Shown here: piece after piece, positions 1 to 29,772 of the stretch
Numbering within the stretch: the first letter of the stretch is position 1
How the letters are laid out: each line of letters begins with the position of its first letter
From: Promethearchaeia archaeon
GTDB lineage: Archaea; Asgardarchaeota; Lokiarchaeia; Sigyniarchaeales; SOKP01
DNA length: 32,000 bases
NCBI GenBank assembly: GCA_046497275.1
Contig: JAWOFX010000096.1
Coordinates: 1 to 32,000 of the forward strand
Reading direction: 5' to 3'
Program-made: the position numbers and the translations under genes
The notes under the pieces: model-generated
Database searches by the model: none
Told to the model about the DNA's origin: nothing
Seen by the model: the letters and a program-made list of their open reading frames with translations, nothing else

Positions 1-594
1 TATAAAATAAATGATACTTGGCCTGAATTAGCTTCACCCAGCTCTGAGATTAGAGTATTGATTAATGGGAATCCTCATACTGAGACAATCCGTTTATCTT
101 CTGCTACTGACGAGTTTCAATCAAATAAACCTGATGGCTATGATGTCACCGATTTACTCTTAAAAGATACCAATATTAATATCTCAATCCAACTATATTT
201 AGCAGATTCATTTGAACTTAATCGAGCAATAAAAATATCAATTGATGATGTCTACCTTGAAATCTCTTATATTGATGTAATAGTTGATATCACCACGGAA
301 CCATGGTTTAATACAGCTCTTTTTATAGGGATCATGACAATTGGTACTGTCTTAGGAATTTATTTTTGGGCTTATTATCGCTATTTAAGATTTCCATTGG
401 CCATTAGAAAAATTAGAAAATATCGCAGTTCATTAACTAGTGGCCAGCCACCTAAAGGTGTTCTCACCCCTTCAAGGAAAAATGCTTTTAGCAGGAAATA
501 TACCAGAAAAATGGGAAGTTCTTCAAAATTACTGGAAGGGAAATCTACCGAGACTTCATTAAAAATCGATATACTGAAAGACGAGTTAAAATAA
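1..594 (+). CDS. C-terminal part (5'-truncated) of a single-pass membrane/surface protein
   Basis: Frame is open from base 1 (YKINDTWPELASPSSEIRVLING...), so the track's TTG start at 58 is internal. Beta-rich segment, then one TM (ALFIGIMTIGTVLGIYFWAYY), then a basic tail (RYLRFPLAIRKIRKYR). Confidence 0.8.
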   Translation, partial: YKINDTWPELASPSSEIRVLINGNPHTETIRLSSATDEFQSNKPDGYDVTDLLLKDTNINISIQLYLADSFELNRAIKISIDDVYLEISYIDVIVDITTEPWFNTALFIGIMTIGTVLGIYFWAYYRYLRFPLAIRKIRKYRSSLTSGQPPKGVLTPSRKNAFSRKYTRKMGSSSKLLEGKSTETSLKIDILKDELK

Positions 595-639
595 AGATTT
601 TTTACTTGCCTTTTATTTTTTCTAAATTCTCTTTTTAGC

Positions 640-1200
640 TTAAAAATCAGATTCTTTTAGAAATTTCACAATCATTGCATTATGGTATCTTCCACGTAGA
701 CATAAATAGTGTTCCAAAACGCATTCTTCTTCAAATCCACATGATTTAAATAATTTAATAGAACGATTATTTTGAATAGTTATATAAGCTTCAAGTCGAT
801 GAAGATTTAGATAATTAAATCCAATTATTTTGGCTAATTCGATTGTTCTTTTTCCAAATCCTTGTTCCCAGTATTTAGGTTTTATCCAAATACCAATTTC
901 AGCTCTTTTATGAAGCCAATTTACATTCCAAAGGCTGATTGCTCCGATCGATTCTTTTATATTATCAAATTTAGCTTCAATGATATAATTAAATTGCTCT
1001 CTATTTTCCCAATAGTTTAAATAACGTTCAATTAAATTTTTAGAATGCCTAAGTGATAAAAGAGGTCCGATTGACATATATCTAATAGTTTCTTTATTAT
1101 TTAAGGCCCGGAAAAAGAATTTAGCATCATCTTTAGTGATTTTTCGTAAAAATATTTTCCCATCATCAATTTCTTCAACGACGTTCCTATTTGGAGACAT
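640..1200 (-). CDS. GNAT family N-acetyltransferase, RimJ/RimL-like
   Basis: FLRKITKDD at the N-terminus, AEIGIWI, acetyl-CoA loop YWEQGFG, LHRLEA, N..SIKLFKSCGFEEE. Confidence 0.9.
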   Translation of the reverse strand: MSPNRNVVEEIDDGKIFLRKITKDDAKFFFRALNNKETIRYMSIGPLLSLRHSKNLIERYLNYWENREQFNYIIEAKFDNIKESIGAISLWNVNWLHKRAEIGIWIKPKYWEQGFGKRTIELAKIIGFNYLNLHRLEAYITIQNNRSIKLFKSCGFEEECVLEHYLCLRGRYHNAMIVKFLKESDF

Positions 1201-1303
1201 AATCGATATTATAAATAAAATATCTTATAGTATAAATCATTAATTGCTTTACGTATAGATTGAAATAAAAAATAAGAAATAAAAAAAATATTAAGAAATA
1301 GGA

Positions 1304-2128
1304 TTAATATCCCTTGAATTCTGGCTCTTTTCGTCTTAAAAAGGCATTAATACCTTCTTTTACATCTTCAGCAGCGGAATTCACACCAAAACCTAATTGT
1401 TCAAACTGTAAACCAATATTAGGTGGAACTTCGGTACCAAATTTCAGACATTTCTTAATAACGGTCAGTGATGTAGTAGCAGCATGGCCCAGCCAAGAAG
1501 CTTTTTCATTGACTAAACTTTCGAATTCATCCCCTTCTTCTGCAAGGAAAGAAACATAACCCCATTCATGCATTTCTTCTGCAGATACTCTTTCACCAAA
1601 GTAAATCATCTTGGTTGTTCTTGCTAACCCAATGTGTCGTGCCATTCTTTGGGTTCCACCATTTGCTGGAAAAATTCCTCTTTGAATTTCTGGAAATCCA
1701 AAGAAAGATCGTTTAGAAGCGATTACAATATCACAAACTAAAGTAAGTTCACAGCCACCACCTAATGCATATCCATCTACAGCAGCAATTACTGGTTTTG
1801 GAAATACTTCTATAAGATCATAATATCTATGACGCATATCCATCGCAATAGACATATGCATTGGAATATTAGGTTTGACTCCAGGACCAAAGGAAGATGA
1901 AAGATCAGCTCCGGCGGAAAATGCAGGTTTCTTGGTATAATCTTTTGTCCCACGTAATACTATACAACGGACTTTTGGATCTAATTCAAAAGAATACATT
2001 GCATCAGAAACTTCTTTGACTGTTTGAACTTGAAGAGCATTTAATTTGTCGGGACGATTCAGAGAAATTACCGCATAATTACCCTCTTCATTAACTTCTA
2101 CTTTTATATGTTCATATTCTTCAGACAT
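1304..2128 (-). CDS. Enoyl-CoA hydratase/isomerase (crotonase) family protein
   Basis: LNRPDKLNAL, AFSAGADL, KPVIAAVDGYALGGGCEL, FGFPEIQRGIFP (both catalytic Glu present), EDVKEGINAF. GAGGTAA RBS upstream. Confidence 0.93.
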   Translation of the reverse strand: MSEEYEHIKVEVNEEGNYAVISLNRPDKLNALQVQTVKEVSDAMYSFELDPKVRCIVLRGTKDYTKKPAFSAGADLSSSFGPGVKPNIPMHMSIAMDMRHRYYDLIEVFPKPVIAAVDGYALGGGCELTLVCDIVIASKRSFFGFPEIQRGIFPANGGTQRMARHIGLARTTKMIYFGERVSAEEMHEWGYVSFLAEEGDEFESLVNEKASWLGHAATTSLTVIKKCLKFGTEVPPNIGLQFEQLGFGVNSAAEDVKEGINAFLRRKEPEFKGY

Positions 2129-2336
2129 ATCATATTACCTCTATTTTTAAGAATTCTTTAATTTTTAATTGAGTTTTCTATTTTTGAATTAAGAATAATT
2201 AGTATTATTTTTTTTAAAATTAAAAACTTTCAAATTTTTATGTAAAAAAGAAAGATAATGGTTTAATCAAATAAAATCTTTAAAAGCAGTAATTAACCCT
2301 AATAAGTTAAAAAAAAACATAAATGCGAAAAAAATA

Positions 2337-3515
2337 TTATTTGTATTTTTTGAATTCTCCAGTCTTCATCATTTCAATGGGTTTTAAATAATCTTTTCCA
2401 GTTTTTTCGGCAAGGCCTTCTAATTTTTGAGCCCATTTTTCATAGCTGCGTTTCCCAGGTCCAAACGGTCCAGGAGTGTTCATTCCCGCCATATTTGCTT
2501 TATCAATAGCCTTATAACTATCAGTTATACCTTCTTTCAATATTCTGCAGCCTTCATTTAACATAATTGCCATGCTATTTTGTACATCAAACATTCCTGC
2601 CTTTTCTGATTTATCAATATCTGGGCGACCCTCTTCTGGCCAATCATAAAATCCTTCACCCGCCTTTTTACCAAGTTTTCCCTCTTCATACATTTCAGTG
2701 AGCACTTTGCCCGGTTTAAAGTCTTCAGATAGTGTTTCTTCATAATATTTCATTGTATGGTAAACCGTATCAATTCCTGTATAATCCATTAATTCACATG
2801 GACCCATTGGCATTAAACCTTTTGCATCCGCATCAATTTTATTCCATGAAATTCCCTCTTCAGCAGCTTTATCAAACATCCAACTCATATATATTTGTAC
2901 AGGAGCATTAAGTCGATTTACGATGAATCCAGGACGATCTTTCAGTACTTTTGCGATAAATCTGTCTCCTTTAAGACAAGGCAAAGATTCACCAAATTTA
3001 ATTCCTATTTCTATAGATTCATCAGAAGATTTATCCCCATATATTATTTCAATTAATCGCATTAAAATTGGAGGATTAAAGAAATGCATGCCTATAACCT
3101 CATCTTCTCTATTTGTGGCACTCGCAATATCTGAAATTGACATTGTTGAGGTATTAGTTGCTAATATACAGTTTTCGGGGGCGTTTTTATCTAATTCTTC
3201 GAAAACTTGTTGTTTAATGTCCATTTTTTCAATAACCGCTTCAATTATATAATCCGCATTATTAGCAGCTTCAGCATTGCTTGTTGTTGTTGTTAATCGA
3301 TCTAGAACCTCATCAGAACTCCCTTCTAATTTTCCTTTAGACTCCAACTTTTTTATTCCATTTGTGATTTCTTTGACTCCTTTGTCTATATATTCTTGTT
3401 TAATATCTGCTAAAGTAACATTATATCCTCCCATCAGTGCAACTTGAGCAATATTATGCCCCATTTCACCTGCACCAATGACAGAAATATTCTTTATTTC
3501 ATCAATACTAACCAT
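2337..3515 (-). CDS. 3-hydroxyacyl-CoA dehydrogenase (NAD-binding), paralog 1
   Basis: IGAGEMG Rossmann motif, IIEAVIE, LATNTSTMSI, GMHFFNP, PGFIVNR, PMGPCELMD. GAGGA RBS. Confidence 0.93.
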   Translation of the reverse strand: MVSIDEIKNISVIGAGEMGHNIAQVALMGGYNVTLADIKQEYIDKGVKEITNGIKKLESKGKLEGSSDEVLDRLTTTTSNAEAANNADYIIEAVIEKMDIKQQVFEELDKNAPENCILATNTSTMSISDIASATNREDEVIGMHFFNPPILMRLIEIIYGDKSSDESIEIGIKFGESLPCLKGDRFIAKVLKDRPGFIVNRLNAPVQIYMSWMFDKAAEEGISWNKIDADAKGLMPMGPCELMDYTGIDTVYHTMKYYEETLSEDFKPGKVLTEMYEEGKLGKKAGEGFYDWPEEGRPDIDKSEKAGMFDVQNSMAIMLNEGCRILKEGITDSYKAIDKANMAGMNTPGPFGPGKRSYEKWAQKLEGLAEKTGKDYLKPIEMMKTGEFKKYK

Positions 3516-3659
3516 TTTGTATTCCTCTTTGATTTGAAATATTTGGATATATCTTTAGCTAGGACTAATTAAGCTCAATTTTTAAATAAACTGCTTAAAA
3601 GTTAAAAATTATAAAAGAAAAAATAGGATAAAAATAAAAAATGAAAATGAAGTTATTAT

Positions 3660-24234: not shown

Positions 24235-26364
24235 TTATTCTTTCTCTTCTAAAAGTTCATCTGCGGTACAAAAATTCGATCTCTTATCTGATTTTGGTTT
24301 AAACTTGACTGAAGACTTCCTATACACGTTTGAATTTAATTCATCAATAAAAGGAGATATTCTTGCTGTTAAATATCCCTTCCATGATTGAATTAAAGCA
24401 GGAGAGATTAAATAAAGCTGATCTTTAGCCCTTGTTATAGCTACGTAAAAAACTCTACGCTCTTCTTCAATTGCTTCCGTATTATCCTTAACCCTGCTTG
24501 ACGGAAAGAACCCATCGCATAACATAGGAATGAATACAACTCGCCATTCTAAACCTTTTGCTCTATGAATCGTTGAAAGAATGAGCGGTTGTTCACTTTC
24601 GTTCTCTGACCCAGCCAACACGGTTTTTGATTCAATATTATTTCTATTTAGACTGAGTGTCTCTAAAAATTTCTGAATAGTTGAATAATTCTGAGAATAA
24701 ATCGCTAATTCTTTTAGGTCCTCTAATCTCTCTTCCCAATTTTCATAAGTTGCTTTAATATAATCCTGAATTAAATCAATTATTTCCTTTAAAACCTCGG
24801 ATGGAGATTCATCAGAATTATAATATCGCAGATTTTTGATGTGGTTAACTAAATTCTGAGCACCTTTACCGGGAATTCTTGAACCTTTCATAATTTTAGT
24901 AAAAAAATTTTTTTCCATTAATCTTTCTAATGGATGATCTGATTGGGAAATTTCAGTAAAAATTTTAGAACCCGAAGTTTGGCCCAAATCTGGGATCATA
25001 TTAAAAATTCGAGACCAAGCGATTTCATCATAAGGATTTTCTATTATTCTAAGGTGAACTAAAGCATCTTTTATATGAGCTTTTTCAAAGAAAGCAACAC
25101 CTGCTCTAACTTCGTAAGGAATATTTTTAACTTTTAATTCTTGCTCGATTTTTAGAGAATGTCTACTAGCTCGAATTAATATAGCCATCTGATTTAAATC
25201 ATATCCTTCAGATCTCAATCTTAATATTTGGTTGGCTATAAATTTTGCTTGTTCTTCTCCATCGGCAACGTTTACTAGAAAAGGTTTGACTCCCGCTTTC
25301 CTAGTGGGCCTCATTTTTTTTGAGTGTTGAAATTCATTATGAAGAATTGAGTCATTCGCGAGGTCTAATATTTCTGGAACACTGCGATAATTGTAGGTGA
25401 TCTTATATTTATTGCAATTGTTATAATTATTCTCAAAATCTAAAATATTTTTGAAATTTGCTCCACGAAATGCATAAATGCTTTGAGCATCATCCCCTAC
25501 CACCATAATATTTTTTTCAGGATTTAATGCTGCAATTTTTTGAATGATCTCATCTTGTATATAATTTGTATCTTGATATTCATCTACTAAAATATATTTA
25601 ATTTTTCTTGCAATCATTCGAGCGACTATTTTTTCATCCAATAACCGATTCCAATAGATTAATAGATCATCGAAATCTAATAATCCATCTTCTTCCTTTT
25701 TTTTGCTATATCTTTTATAGATCTCTTTTAATTTATCTTCGATTCTCTCATCGTCAAAATCACTATATTTCCATTTTAATACTTCACGTATAGATTTATT
25801 ACAATTGATCGAATATGAAAGAATATTTTTTGCCATTTTAGAAGTGGGAAATCGCTCTTCAATTTCAGAGGTTTTGGACTCGTCCATAGCTAATCTCATC
25901 AAAGCTCTCGCATCCGTTTCATCCATAATATTATAATTTGGTTTTAATCCTAATGTTTTAGAATAACGTCTTATAAAGCGGTTCGCCATAGAATGAAATG
26001 TACCAGCCCAAATACCCTTTGGTCGTTTTCCTAATAAAATTTCCACTCGCTTTATCATTTCTTTAGCTGCTTTATTAGTAAAGGTCACCAGCATAATTTC
26101 ATTGGGTTTAACGCGTGAAAGGAGGAGTTTTGCCACTGCATACGTAATTGTTCGGGTTTTCCCCGACCCTGCCCCTGCTATAACCAACATTGGCCCTGAA
26201 ATATTATTAATTATTTCAAGTTGTTCATCATTCAGATTTTCTTCGAAATCTATCTTGTTATATTCCTCGGCAATTGAATCAATATCTTTATCTAAAGATC
26301 CTTCATAATCCTCATAAAACTCGAAAATAAATTCCTCTTCAGATTTTTTATTATCTTTATTCAT
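24235..26364 (-). CDS. uvrD: SF1 UvrD/PcrA-family ATP-dependent DNA helicase
   Basis: AGAGSGKT, TFTNKAA, TFHS, LVDEYQD, VGDDAQSIYAFRGA, NYRS, STIHRAKGLEW, EERRVFYVAITRA. Acidic N-terminal extension. No Tudor-like C-terminal domain. Confidence 0.95.
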   Translation of the reverse strand: MNKDNKKSEEEFIFEFYEDYEGSLDKDIDSIAEEYNKIDFEENLNDEQLEIINNISGPMLVIAGAGSGKTRTITYAVAKLLLSRVKPNEIMLVTFTNKAAKEMIKRVEILLGKRPKGIWAGTFHSMANRFIRRYSKTLGLKPNYNIMDETDARALMRLAMDESKTSEIEERFPTSKMAKNILSYSINCNKSIREVLKWKYSDFDDERIEDKLKEIYKRYSKKKEEDGLLDFDDLLIYWNRLLDEKIVARMIARKIKYILVDEYQDTNYIQDEIIQKIAALNPEKNIMVVGDDAQSIYAFRGANFKNILDFENNYNNCNKYKITYNYRSVPEILDLANDSILHNEFQHSKKMRPTRKAGVKPFLVNVADGEEQAKFIANQILRLRSEGYDLNQMAILIRASRHSLKIEQELKVKNIPYEVRAGVAFFEKAHIKDALVHLRIIENPYDEIAWSRIFNMIPDLGQTSGSKIFTEISQSDHPLERLMEKNFFTKIMKGSRIPGKGAQNLVNHIKNLRYYNSDESPSEVLKEIIDLIQDYIKATYENWEERLEDLKELAIYSQNYSTIQKFLETLSLNRNNIESKTVLAGSENESEQPLILSTIHRAKGLEWRVVFIPMLCDGFFPSSRVKDNTEAIEEERRVFYVAITRAKDQLYLISPALIQSWKGYLTARISPFIDELNSNVYRKSSVKFKPKSDKRSNFCTADELLEEKE

Positions 26365-29019: not shown

Positions 29020-29772
29020 ATGGATAAAAATGAAACAGTTCACATAATTATTGATACTAGAGAGAATAAACTCATTAAAATTTTAGAAGAAAGTCATGAG
29101 TTTGTGGAATTAGAAATTAAACAGTTAGATATAGCAGATATCATTGTATCTAAAAATGTAGCTATTGAGAGAAAAGAGGGATCTGACTTTATTGCGTCTA
29201 TAATGGATAATCGACTGTTTGATCAGTTGATTAGATTAAAGGAAACTTATCCAAATCCCGTTCTTATTTTGGAAGGCTTAACTGATGAGATATTTGATAA
29301 TACAGGTATGAATATCAAATCCATATATGGTGCTCTTGCATTTATATCTTATAAATTAGGAATTGCAGTAATTCCGACTCGAAATTTAGATGATACTGCG
29401 ATAGTTATTGAAAGAATTGCTTACCGGGAGCAAATAAAAGATGAAATGCCTATTTTAAGCCGTTCAGCTCCAAAAAATATGGGAACGTTCGAAAGAAGAT
29501 GTTTTATCCTCGAAGGACTTTTAGATATTGGTCCTACAAAAGCAAAACAATTAATTGAACGTTTTGGAACGCCTTTTAGAGTTTTTGAAGCAATAAAGTT
29601 TACAAAAATTCTTTATACAAGTACAGGAAATCCAAAAGGGATTCAAGGACCTCTTGATACATTAAAAGGATTTGGATGGAAATTTTTAAAGAAGAATAAA
29701 CACCTAATTTTAGGTAAAGAAAAATCAGATGATAAAAAAATAGAGAAATCTGCGATCGATGATTATATTTAA
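29020..29772 (+). CDS. xpf: Short XPF/ERCC4-type structure-specific endonuclease with HhH motifs
   Basis: IIIDTRE, DIIVS..VAIERK..SDFIASIMDNRLFDQL, LILEG, HhH LDIGPTKAKQLIERFG. No helicase domain. Confidence 0.9.
   Translation: MDKNETVHIIIDTRENKLIKILEESHEFVELEIKQLDIADIIVSKNVAIERKEGSDFIASIMDNRLFDQLIRLKETYPNPVLILEGLTDEIFDNTGMNIKSIYGALAFISYKLGIAVIPTRNLDDTAIVIERIAYREQIKDEMPILSRSAPKNMGTFERRCFILEGLLDIGPTKAKQLIERFGTPFRVFEAIKFTKILYTSTGNPKGIQGPLDTLKGFGWKFLKKNKHLILGKEKSDDKKIEKSAIDDYI

Follow-up and report, generated by a model that had tools for sequence, protein, structure and literature searches.

A lokiarchaeal UvrD/PcrA-type helicase with a conserved FxxA-type tail predicted to dock on RadA

The stretch of 32,000 nucleotides studied here in its entirety (the window; positions 1 to 32,000 of contig JAWOFX010000096.1, Promethearchaeia archaeon assembly GCA_046497275.1) encodes a UvrD/PcrA-family helicase that ends in FCTADELL, a short motif of the FxxA type known from the polymerization motif of RadA/Rad51 recombinases. 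This motif is almost invariant among the orthologs of the same Lokiarchaeal family and is predicted to dock on the FxxA site of one of the RadA proteins of the host. By analogy with Srs2 and RECQL5 it appears probable that the tail serves as a handle for RadA binding and thereby guides the motor to RadA filaments, a combined statement that we can make with this degree of confidence because remodeling is taken in a broad sense. UvrD, PcrA and Srs2 are UvrD-family motors that strip RecA or Rad51, and regulators of Rad51, such as BRCA2, RECQL5 and FIGNL1, usually hold on to it through FxxA mimics. To our knowledge, the restraint and dismantling of RadA filaments in archaea are poorly understood, and in the literature we found neither a paper tying an archaeal UvrD to RadA or FxxA nor an Srs2-type enzyme from archaea whose handle for the recombinase is defined. 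With this tail, the helicase is likely to be a so far undescribed regulator of archaeal recombination filaments.

A conserved FxxA-type motif at the C-terminus of the helicase

A genome search returned one match for the helicase, i.e. a single copy was found. The gene and its parts are as follows:

24235-26364, minus strand: gene for a UvrD/PcrA-family superfamily 1A (SF1A) helicase (P0001), 709 aa (open reading frame list and translation, Pfam and NCBIfam matches)
26245-26364, minus strand: disordered acidic N-terminal extension, residues 1-40 (AlphaFold2 (AF2), PcrA/UvrD models)
24406-26235, minus strand: helicase core, residues 44-653 (Pfam, ortholog conservation, AF2)
24274-24321, minus strand: flexible linker rich in lysine and arginine (K/R-rich), residues 682-697, from the last core element to the motif (entropies, AF2)
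24250-24273, minus strand: FxxA-type motif FCTADELL, residues 698-705, putative mimic of the RadA polymerization motif (conservation, predicted interface)
24235-24249, minus strand: variable charged tip EEKE and stop codon (translation; the columns are variable and often missing in orthologs)

The 709-aa reading frame ends with VKFKPKSDKRSNFCTADELLEEKE in front of the stop codon at 24235-24237, its C-terminal residues also being given as KFKPKSDKRSNFCTADELLEEKE. The C-terminus is thus made up of a disordered K/R-rich linker followed by NFCTADELLEEKE. FCTADELL lies exactly where the original prediction had placed it, with F698 encoded at 24271-24273 and L705 at 24250-24252.

The original prediction depended on the terminal F-x-(T/S)-A, and this element proved to be conserved. 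In 150 of 152 Loki-family orthologs, which represent 133 unique tails, [F/Y]-x-[S/T]-A is kept and the other two have degenerate versions; the consensus F-x-[S/T]-A-x-[D/E]-L-Φ extends to orthologs with as little as 43% identity. All same-family orthologs from 40 relatives combine a K/R-rich linker with [N/G/L]F-x-[S/T]-A-x-[D/E]-L-[L/I/F], and the same holds for the 120 best database homologs. Tails from a subclade with 53-59% identity read PLFTTADSLLKD, those from a subclade with 43-48% identity NFITADKL[L/F]. An alignment of 97 orthologs yielded column entropies of 0.08 bits for F698 (F in 96 sequences), 1.03 bits for [T/S]700, 0 bits for A701 (A in all 97) and 0.6 bits for L704, as compared with 2.5-3.4 bits in the part of the linker that adjoins the motif (residues 690-697).

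The spacer that separates the motif from the conserved F[IV]xEL close to the core's end (residues 672-676) has a median length of 28 residues in the orthologs, with a range of 11-42 and a median net charge of +7. In the AF2 model the predicted local distance difference test score (pLDDT) falls below 50 at residues 693-695 and averages 51 over the block 691-700, while a helix of residues 701-707 (pLDDT about 64) begins directly after T700. The motif therefore is, as modeled, in a flexible and accessible segment. It is present in a single copy, and most ortholog tails end 4-15 residues past it. The motif is not always terminal, as some orthologs extend 40-70 residues or a zinc ribbon beyond it. 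Such a C-terminal zinc ribbon (CxxC...CxxC) ends the longer tail of some Loki orthologs and follows the FxxA motif in L012; an FxxA motif was not located in the longer zinc-ribbon tails of P0026 and P0080.

Likeness of the tail to RadA polymerization motifs

The host assembly (3.85 Mb, 188 contigs) contains four Rad51/RadA-family genes (L001, L002, L003 and L004, on contigs C56, C46, C13 and C69), and a true RecA was not found in a search of this genome. RadA1 is of the short type (326 aa) and has the motif MGFKSAELIWEKRR, including GFKSAELIW, between its N-terminal domain and the ATPase core. RadA2 (443 aa) features a long acidic N-terminal extension with CxxC and the motif VGFKSAQTLWETRK, RadA3 (379 aa) a C-terminal helix-hairpin-helix extension and the motif EFIPAAEIDE, and the fourth gene is RadB-like (271 aa). 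The motif stretch of the host RadA aligns with MGFVTAADF of yeast Rad51, and across 30 relatives the RadA motif can be written as GF[K/E][S/T]Axx[I/V]W. Ortholog tails such as GFKSAADLL, LFKSAIDLL, NFKTANDLL, GFISAADLV and LFQTADELL have the pattern F-x-[S/T]-A-x-x-[L/I/V]-[hydrophobic] in common with RadA.

The oligomerization sequences of RAD51 and RadA share FxxA with BRC repeats and occupy the same binding site (PMC4855620). At position 3 of the motif, Thr or Ser is commonest and caps the following helix in the oligomerization peptide, and Pro at position 2 abolishes binding (PMC4855620). The helicase tail obeys these rules: of 97 sequences, 96 have T (60) or S (36) at position 3, position 2 is occupied by Q, K, T, I and similar residues with Pro in only one of 111 unique tails, and the modeled helix follows T700.

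Predicted docking of the tail on RadA1

For complex prediction, the RadA1 core (residues 91-326, 30-row alignment) was paired with the tail (residues 678-709, 97-row alignment). The motif was placed on the FxxA site, as the original prediction would have it, with a score of 0.84 as compared with 0.01 for the best of three controls; since structures of RAD51-BRC4 (1n0w) and of RadA with FxxA peptides have been solved and may be remembered by the predictor, passing the mark here denotes likeness to an FxxA ligand and not binding by this copy. Of 80 solved complexes 58 attained this mark, as did 2 of 110 mismatched pairs. Contact agreement between runs was at least 97%, and the pLDDT of the partner was at least 51.

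On the tail side, the predicted interface comprises residues 697-702 and 704-705 and coincides exactly with the motif. RadA1 contributes residues 133, 150-151, 158, 160, 163, 175, 178-184, 191, 194-195, 198 and 202. RadA1 residues 125-215 align without a gap with human RAD51 133-223, such that RadA1 residue n corresponds to RAD51 residue n+8. The Phe pocket of RAD51 is made up of M158, I160, A192, L203 and M210 (PMC4855620). Its counterparts in RadA1 are L150, I152, G184, L195 and I202, and four of these five (L150, G184, L195 and I202) are part of the interface; the mapping covers the Phe pocket only, and the residues of the RAD51 Ala pocket could not be confirmed from papers. According to the model, the tail thus docks on the RadA FxxA site that is homologous to the Phe pocket of RAD51. 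Conservation, the shared pattern and docking together lend support to the earlier proposal that the tail mimics the RadA subunit interface, which we regard as predicted.

Helicase core and absence of the bacterial C-terminal domain

The protein contains the UvrD-helicase (1A/1B; PF00580, residues 44-314, 4.8e-76) and UvrD_C (2A/2B; PF13361, residues 321-653, 1.2e-55) domains as well as the Walker A and DExx motifs of SF1A enzymes. Walker A (GAGSGKT, residues 64-70) and motif II (DEYQD, residues 261-265) are intact and invariant or nearly so among 97 orthologs, and the core is confidently modeled in the AF2 prediction on the alignment (mean pLDDT 85.9). The gene product is hence predicted to be an active-looking 3'-5' SF1A helicase of the UvrD/PcrA type. 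Among the NCBIfam models, PcrA (TIGR01073) matched best (7.6e-136) with 454 bits as compared with a cut-off of 911, followed by UvrD (TIGR01075) with 379 bits (cut-off 1144) and Rep (TIGR01074) with 351 bits (cut-off 951). Judged by these matches, the helicase is a member of the UvrD/PcrA/Rep family and the equivalog of none of the three.

In bacterial UvrD and PcrA, a Tudor-like C-terminal domain binds RNA polymerase and UvrB. This region is absent from the protein studied here, since the PcrA model (725 positions) is matched over positions 3-650 only, leaving 651-725 unmatched, and since the best match in a PDB sequence search, PcrA 1pjr (724 aa, 7e-91), covers chain residues 11-644 only. 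The next matches were UvrD of D. radiodurans, M. tuberculosis and E. coli and then Rep. Replacement of the Tudor-like domain by a charged linker and the motif had already been noted in the original prediction and holds true, the linker being K/R-rich, flexible and some 15-40 residues in length. One distant Asgard homolog (L050) still has the Tudor-like end.

The protein also possesses an N-terminal extension, with pLDDT values below 50 for residues 1-31 and matches to the PcrA and UvrD models that begin at residue 42. It harbors a second conserved short motif, EEE[F/Y][V/I]FEFY[E/D]D (residues 9-19, nucleotides 26308-26340, minus strand), with entropies of 0.09 bits for F14, 0 for E15, 0.55 for F16 and 0.35 for Y17. 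This candidate second docking site could accommodate a further partner, for example as a non-canonical PCNA-interacting protein (PIP) box-like or an RPA-binding peptide. As a PIP box proper it was rejected: Glu stands where the PIP boxes of the host FEN1 have Gln, and the most conserved residues are off the PIP positions.

Distribution and recurrence in Micrarchaeota

Among 251 sampled genomes of the phylum, 51 of 54 from the host's family and only 7 of 196 from other families have a UvrD homolog (E<=1e-60). The close homologs of the helicase are labeled Promethearchaeota or Lokiarchaeota in public records. Most likely, the Lokiarchaeal family acquired the helicase from bacteria. Short and long RadA are both found in the family of the host, and in neighboring families only the long type and RadA3 were seen; short RadA and tailed UvrD share the same family-level distribution, though this is not an independent correlation.

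A profile search covered 1.84 billion cluster representatives. Among the best 150, which were inspected, six have FxxA-type ends. Four of these are of the Loki type, and the other two are P0147 (GFVRADEL) and P0209 (LFKRADEL), the latter from a metagenome-assembled genome of Candidatus Micrarchaeota (DPANN). None of 79 bacterial relatives with 38-44% identity (Verrucomicrobiota, Acidobacteriota, Planctomycetota and others) has the motif. A sample of 201 Micrarchaeota genomes contained a UvrD homolog in 12 cases, and four of these proteins end with LFKRADEL, DFVSADTLL (twice) and DFVSADQLL. The variant F-x-R-A in this group has Arg at motif position 3. GFETADVIF, GFESADVIL and GFESADKIL are the RadA motifs in Micrarchaeota genomes with tailed helicases, and within one and the same genome the helicase end FVSAD-x-LL closely parallels the recombinase motif FESAD-x-IL.

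In a maximum likelihood tree of 46 rows, the deep nodes of which are weak, motif-less sequences form the sister group (support 100) of the Loki clade (support 98), which resides within a motif-less Asgard UvrD group, such that the tree neighbors of the tailed helicase are motif-less Asgard and metagenomic sequences. The Micrarchaeota clade including P0147 (support 99) is separate from the Loki clade, and at least three changes of the tail trait are required on the tree. The approximately unbiased test rejects a single clade of all tailed helicases (log-likelihood difference 134, p 2e-58) for a group that is defined by the trait, yet was named after the first tree had been seen.

Comparison with known systems

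Srs2 strips Rad51 from single-stranded DNA and binds it through a region around residues 875-902. Like the helicase described here, Srs2 from S. cerevisiae combines a UvrD-type SF1A 3'-5' motor with a disordered C-terminal region, which contacts the recombinase in Srs2 and is predicted to do so in the archaeal protein. Srs2 differs in that it has additional PCNA and SUMO interaction motifs and in that its Rad51-binding region is not described as an FxxA mimic. Moreover, the nearest solved relatives of the Loki helicase are bacterial PcrA and UvrD.

The BRC-variant repeat of human RECQL5 and the FRBD of FIGNL1 offer a second parallel, because there, too, an FxxA-type peptide is attached to a motor ATPase; these peptides bind RAD51 and are needed for filament disruption. 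RECQL5 is a RecQ helicase of superfamily 2 and FIGNL1 is an AAA+ ATPase, both of them eukaryotic, whereas the protein found here is an archaeal SF1A enzyme with the peptide at its C-terminus. The BRC repeats of BRCA2 insert FxxA into the Phe and Ala pockets, as in RAD51-BRC4 (1n0w; PMC4855620), and the interface predicted for the tail maps to the corresponding residues of the Phe pocket. Unlike a BRC repeat, the tail occurs in a single copy and has neither an LFDE module about 20 residues past FxxA nor a beta-hairpin context. It is thus not a BRC repeat, as a second, LFDE-type module is missing and the motif is not repeated; rather, it continues as a short Thr/Ser-capped helix in the manner of the RadA/Rad51 oligomerization peptide.

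The RadA/Rad51 polymerization motif itself (GFKSAELIW in RadA1, GFVTAADF in yeast) agrees with the tail in pattern, in the flexible linker and in the helix that follows, the difference being that the motif here sits on a helicase. In addition, position +7 of the Loki tail is L, I or V and not W, and the Gly at -1 is mostly replaced by L, N or S. Bacterial UvrD and PcrA resemble the protein with regard to the helicase core and to the presence of UvrA, UvrB and MutS in the genome. They differ from it in the equivalog cut-offs, which it does not reach, in the Tudor domain that it lacks, in the extra acidic N-terminal extension that it has and in the recombinase of the host, which is RadA and not RecA.

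Proposed function and alternative explanations

In the mechanism that we propose, a RadA protomer, either free or located at a filament end, would receive the Phe and Ala residues of the tail in its FxxA pockets. The tail would tether the 3'-5' translocase to filaments of RadA on single-stranded DNA and compete with the subunit-subunit contact, which would enable the helicase to take apart or remodel RadA filaments as well as D-loops and perhaps to cap protomers after their release. Such an activity would match, in archaea, the way in which bacterial UvrD/PcrA clear RecA and Srs2 and RECQL5 clear Rad51. Physical binding, the RadA paralog that is bound and the outcome, be it stripping or recruitment, are what we infer. 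Predicted binding of RadA via the tail motif is the firmest of these elements and can be considered rather likely. Filament stripping as the main outcome is conceivable, though somewhat less probable than not. In one relative (G019; locus L016, G019:C8:3419-8527) radA1 (339-1334, plus strand) is situated directly upstream of uvrD (about 1500-3609, plus strand) with a gap of about 170 bp.

Several observations weigh against the proposed role. The adjacency to radA was encountered in only one of about 45 loci, and a conserved operon does not exist among them. The neighbors of the helicase gene in the window are metabolic and encode a beta-eliminating lyase, a DeoC aldolase and a subtilase. The UvrDs of neighboring Asgard families (37-44% identity), which terminate in acidic tips or, for one of them, in a Tudor-like domain, do not have the motif although their hosts have RadA, and it is likewise absent in 7 of 11 full-length Micrarchaeota UvrD homologs inspected, again from hosts with RadA; the motif is therefore not obligatory for an archaeal UvrD. 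A position-specific scoring matrix (PSSM) built from 109 unique UvrD tails retrieved the UvrD tail first from its own proteome with 25.2 bits, with the RadA motif staying below 12 bits. Conversely, a PSSM from 23 Loki-order RadA motifs found RadA1 and RadA2. It gave the UvrD tail of the same organism less than 8 bits, owing to the Gly at -1, the Lys at +1 and the Trp at +7. As both strict PSSMs fail to connect the tail with RadA, the likeness is one of pattern and not of sequence identity. The loose pattern F.[ST]A..[LIVM][hydrophobic] is by no means rare, with 48 occurrences as compared with 30 expected in about 1.06 million residues of the own genome, most of them in membrane or folded segments. 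Finally, UvrA, UvrB and MutS are present in the host, and the helicase therefore need not be a dedicated anti-recombinase; it may also serve bacterial-type nucleotide excision repair and mismatch repair. The uvrA and uvrB genes are adjacent on contig C68. Bacterial-type MutS1 is encoded in two pieces (G000:C162:8-1252 and C140:11290-12159) that lie at or near contig ends and each score below the family cut-off, probably due to an assembly break and not to a split gene.

The further matches of the RadA PSSM were dismissed as chance, as they fall inside folded RpoB, acyl-CoA dehydrogenase and ELP3-like domains.

The alternative that fares best accepts binding of the tail to RadA and assigns it the task of recruitment or loading, in favor of repair and without filament stripping. 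The helicase could be brought to D-loops for strand displacement, in a manner similar to synthesis-dependent strand annealing, to stalled forks coated with RadA, or to gaps where RadA would be coupled to nucleotide excision or mismatch repair. We consider this explanation unlikely, though it draws on the same sequence and docking evidence as the handle for filament remodeling and is in line with UvrA, UvrB and MutS in the host. FxxA also occurs in mediators that are Rad51 loaders or stabilizers, such as BRCA2 and yeast Rad52, the latter as reported in PMC12218292. On the other hand, UvrD-family motors with known links to a recombinase (UvrD, PcrA and Srs2) are strippers, and an FxxA peptide that caps monomers competes with the filament interface. 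Furthermore, RadA is present in all four Micrarchaeota genomes with tailed helicases, whereas UvrB was not found (E<=1e-20) in three of the four, which may be incomplete.

Only slightly less probable than recruitment is docking of the motif on a different archaeal partner, such as PCNA, RPA/SSB, RNA polymerase, a RadB-type paralog, UvrB or MutL. Confinement of the motif to archaeal hosts would fit any archaea-specific partner, the strict PSSMs do not link the tail to RadA, and the bacterial domain that has been replaced is one that binds RNA polymerase and UvrB. ATRIP, for instance, binds RPA70N with an acidic amphipathic helix (D-F-T-A-D-D-L-E-E-L type). The basic flanks of the tail, however, are ill-suited to a basic cleft of the RPA70N type, the invariant F, [S/T] and A and the aliphatic residue at +6 are exactly those of RadA/Rad51 motifs, and it is on the FxxA site that the tail is predicted to dock. 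The tail is also unlikely to be a PIP box, since those in FEN1 of the host are QVSLDQFM and QKTLDMIF.

It is improbable that the tail does without an external partner and acts within the molecule or in self-association, be it in auto-inhibition of the 2B domain or in dimerization. The C-terminal 40 or so residues of E. coli UvrD have been linked to self-association, and the moderate pLDDT of the tail helix could be seen in this light. The AF2 model, however, does not dock the tail confidently on the core, the linker is of low confidence and free in length, and some orthologs have a further 40-70 residues or a zinc ribbon past the motif; moreover, such a role would leave the RadA-like convergence in two clades unexplained. 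A functionless chance resemblance, which the original prediction had conceded and which the shortness of the pattern and its frequency in the proteome might suggest, is highly improbable: the caveat is apt for a single match, but chance is excluded by near-invariance of the motif in 150 of 152 orthologs inside a hypervariable linker, and the motif recurs in a second clade.

Should the tail indeed bind RadA as a handle for the motor, the helicase would provide a concrete candidate for an archaeal anti-recombinase with two key residues, F698 and A701. FxxA mimicry, which is central to BRCA2 biology, would then predate eukaryotes, with convergent origins in the helicases of two phyla of archaea. 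Through a short linear motif, a bacterial repair enzyme taken up by horizontal transfer would have been re-plugged into the eukaryote-like recombination of an archaeon. The tails also supply natural FxxA peptides for RadA/RAD51 surrogate systems.

A second FxxA candidate and further observations

The second-best match of the tail PSSM in the proteome is P0122, a coiled-coil protein of 199 aa (G000:C84:65412-66008, minus strand; L083:2013-2609). It consists of a long N-terminal helix (residues 3-55), a disordered linker (55-89) and an alpha/beta domain (93-197). The linker starts with KSF-x-[S/T]-A-x-[D/E]-[I/L]-[Y/L], in which F57 is nearly invariant and A60 invariant among 19 orthologs from two families. 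Searches of Pfam and of the PDB (fold matches at E<=0.001) returned nothing for P0122, and matches in the Atlas were restricted to hypothetical clusters. On the basis of its linker, P0122 is a candidate for a second FxxA-bearing partner of RadA. It is tempting, though doubtful, to combine these findings into a broader picture of archaeal FxxA mimicry, in which bacterial UvrDs were re-wired at least twice into Srs2-like anti-recombinases, P0122 uses the same handle and a network of RadA regulators existed before eukaryotes.

C-terminal tips of other kinds were noted elsewhere in the helicase family. Many bacterial relatives (L110-L188) have acidic tips that are closed by an aromatic residue (...EDDENVPW, ...EEDAPF, ...DEDFDDEPF and ...RDWWY) and recall the C-terminal tips of single-stranded DNA-binding protein (SSB). 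Another set of clusters (P0138, P0161, P0163, P0182 and P0183, listed with the bacterial L110-L188) ends with [G/S]FL[R/K]D[I/V]D[D/E]L. Judged by these tips, the helicase family seems generally to bear docking peptides at its C-terminus, which differ from lineage to lineage.

Within the window, a gene for a 250-aa ERCC4-domain protein (XPF/Mus81/Hef-type nuclease; 29020-29772, plus strand) is located 2.7 kb from the helicase gene, with the aldolase and subtilase genes in between.

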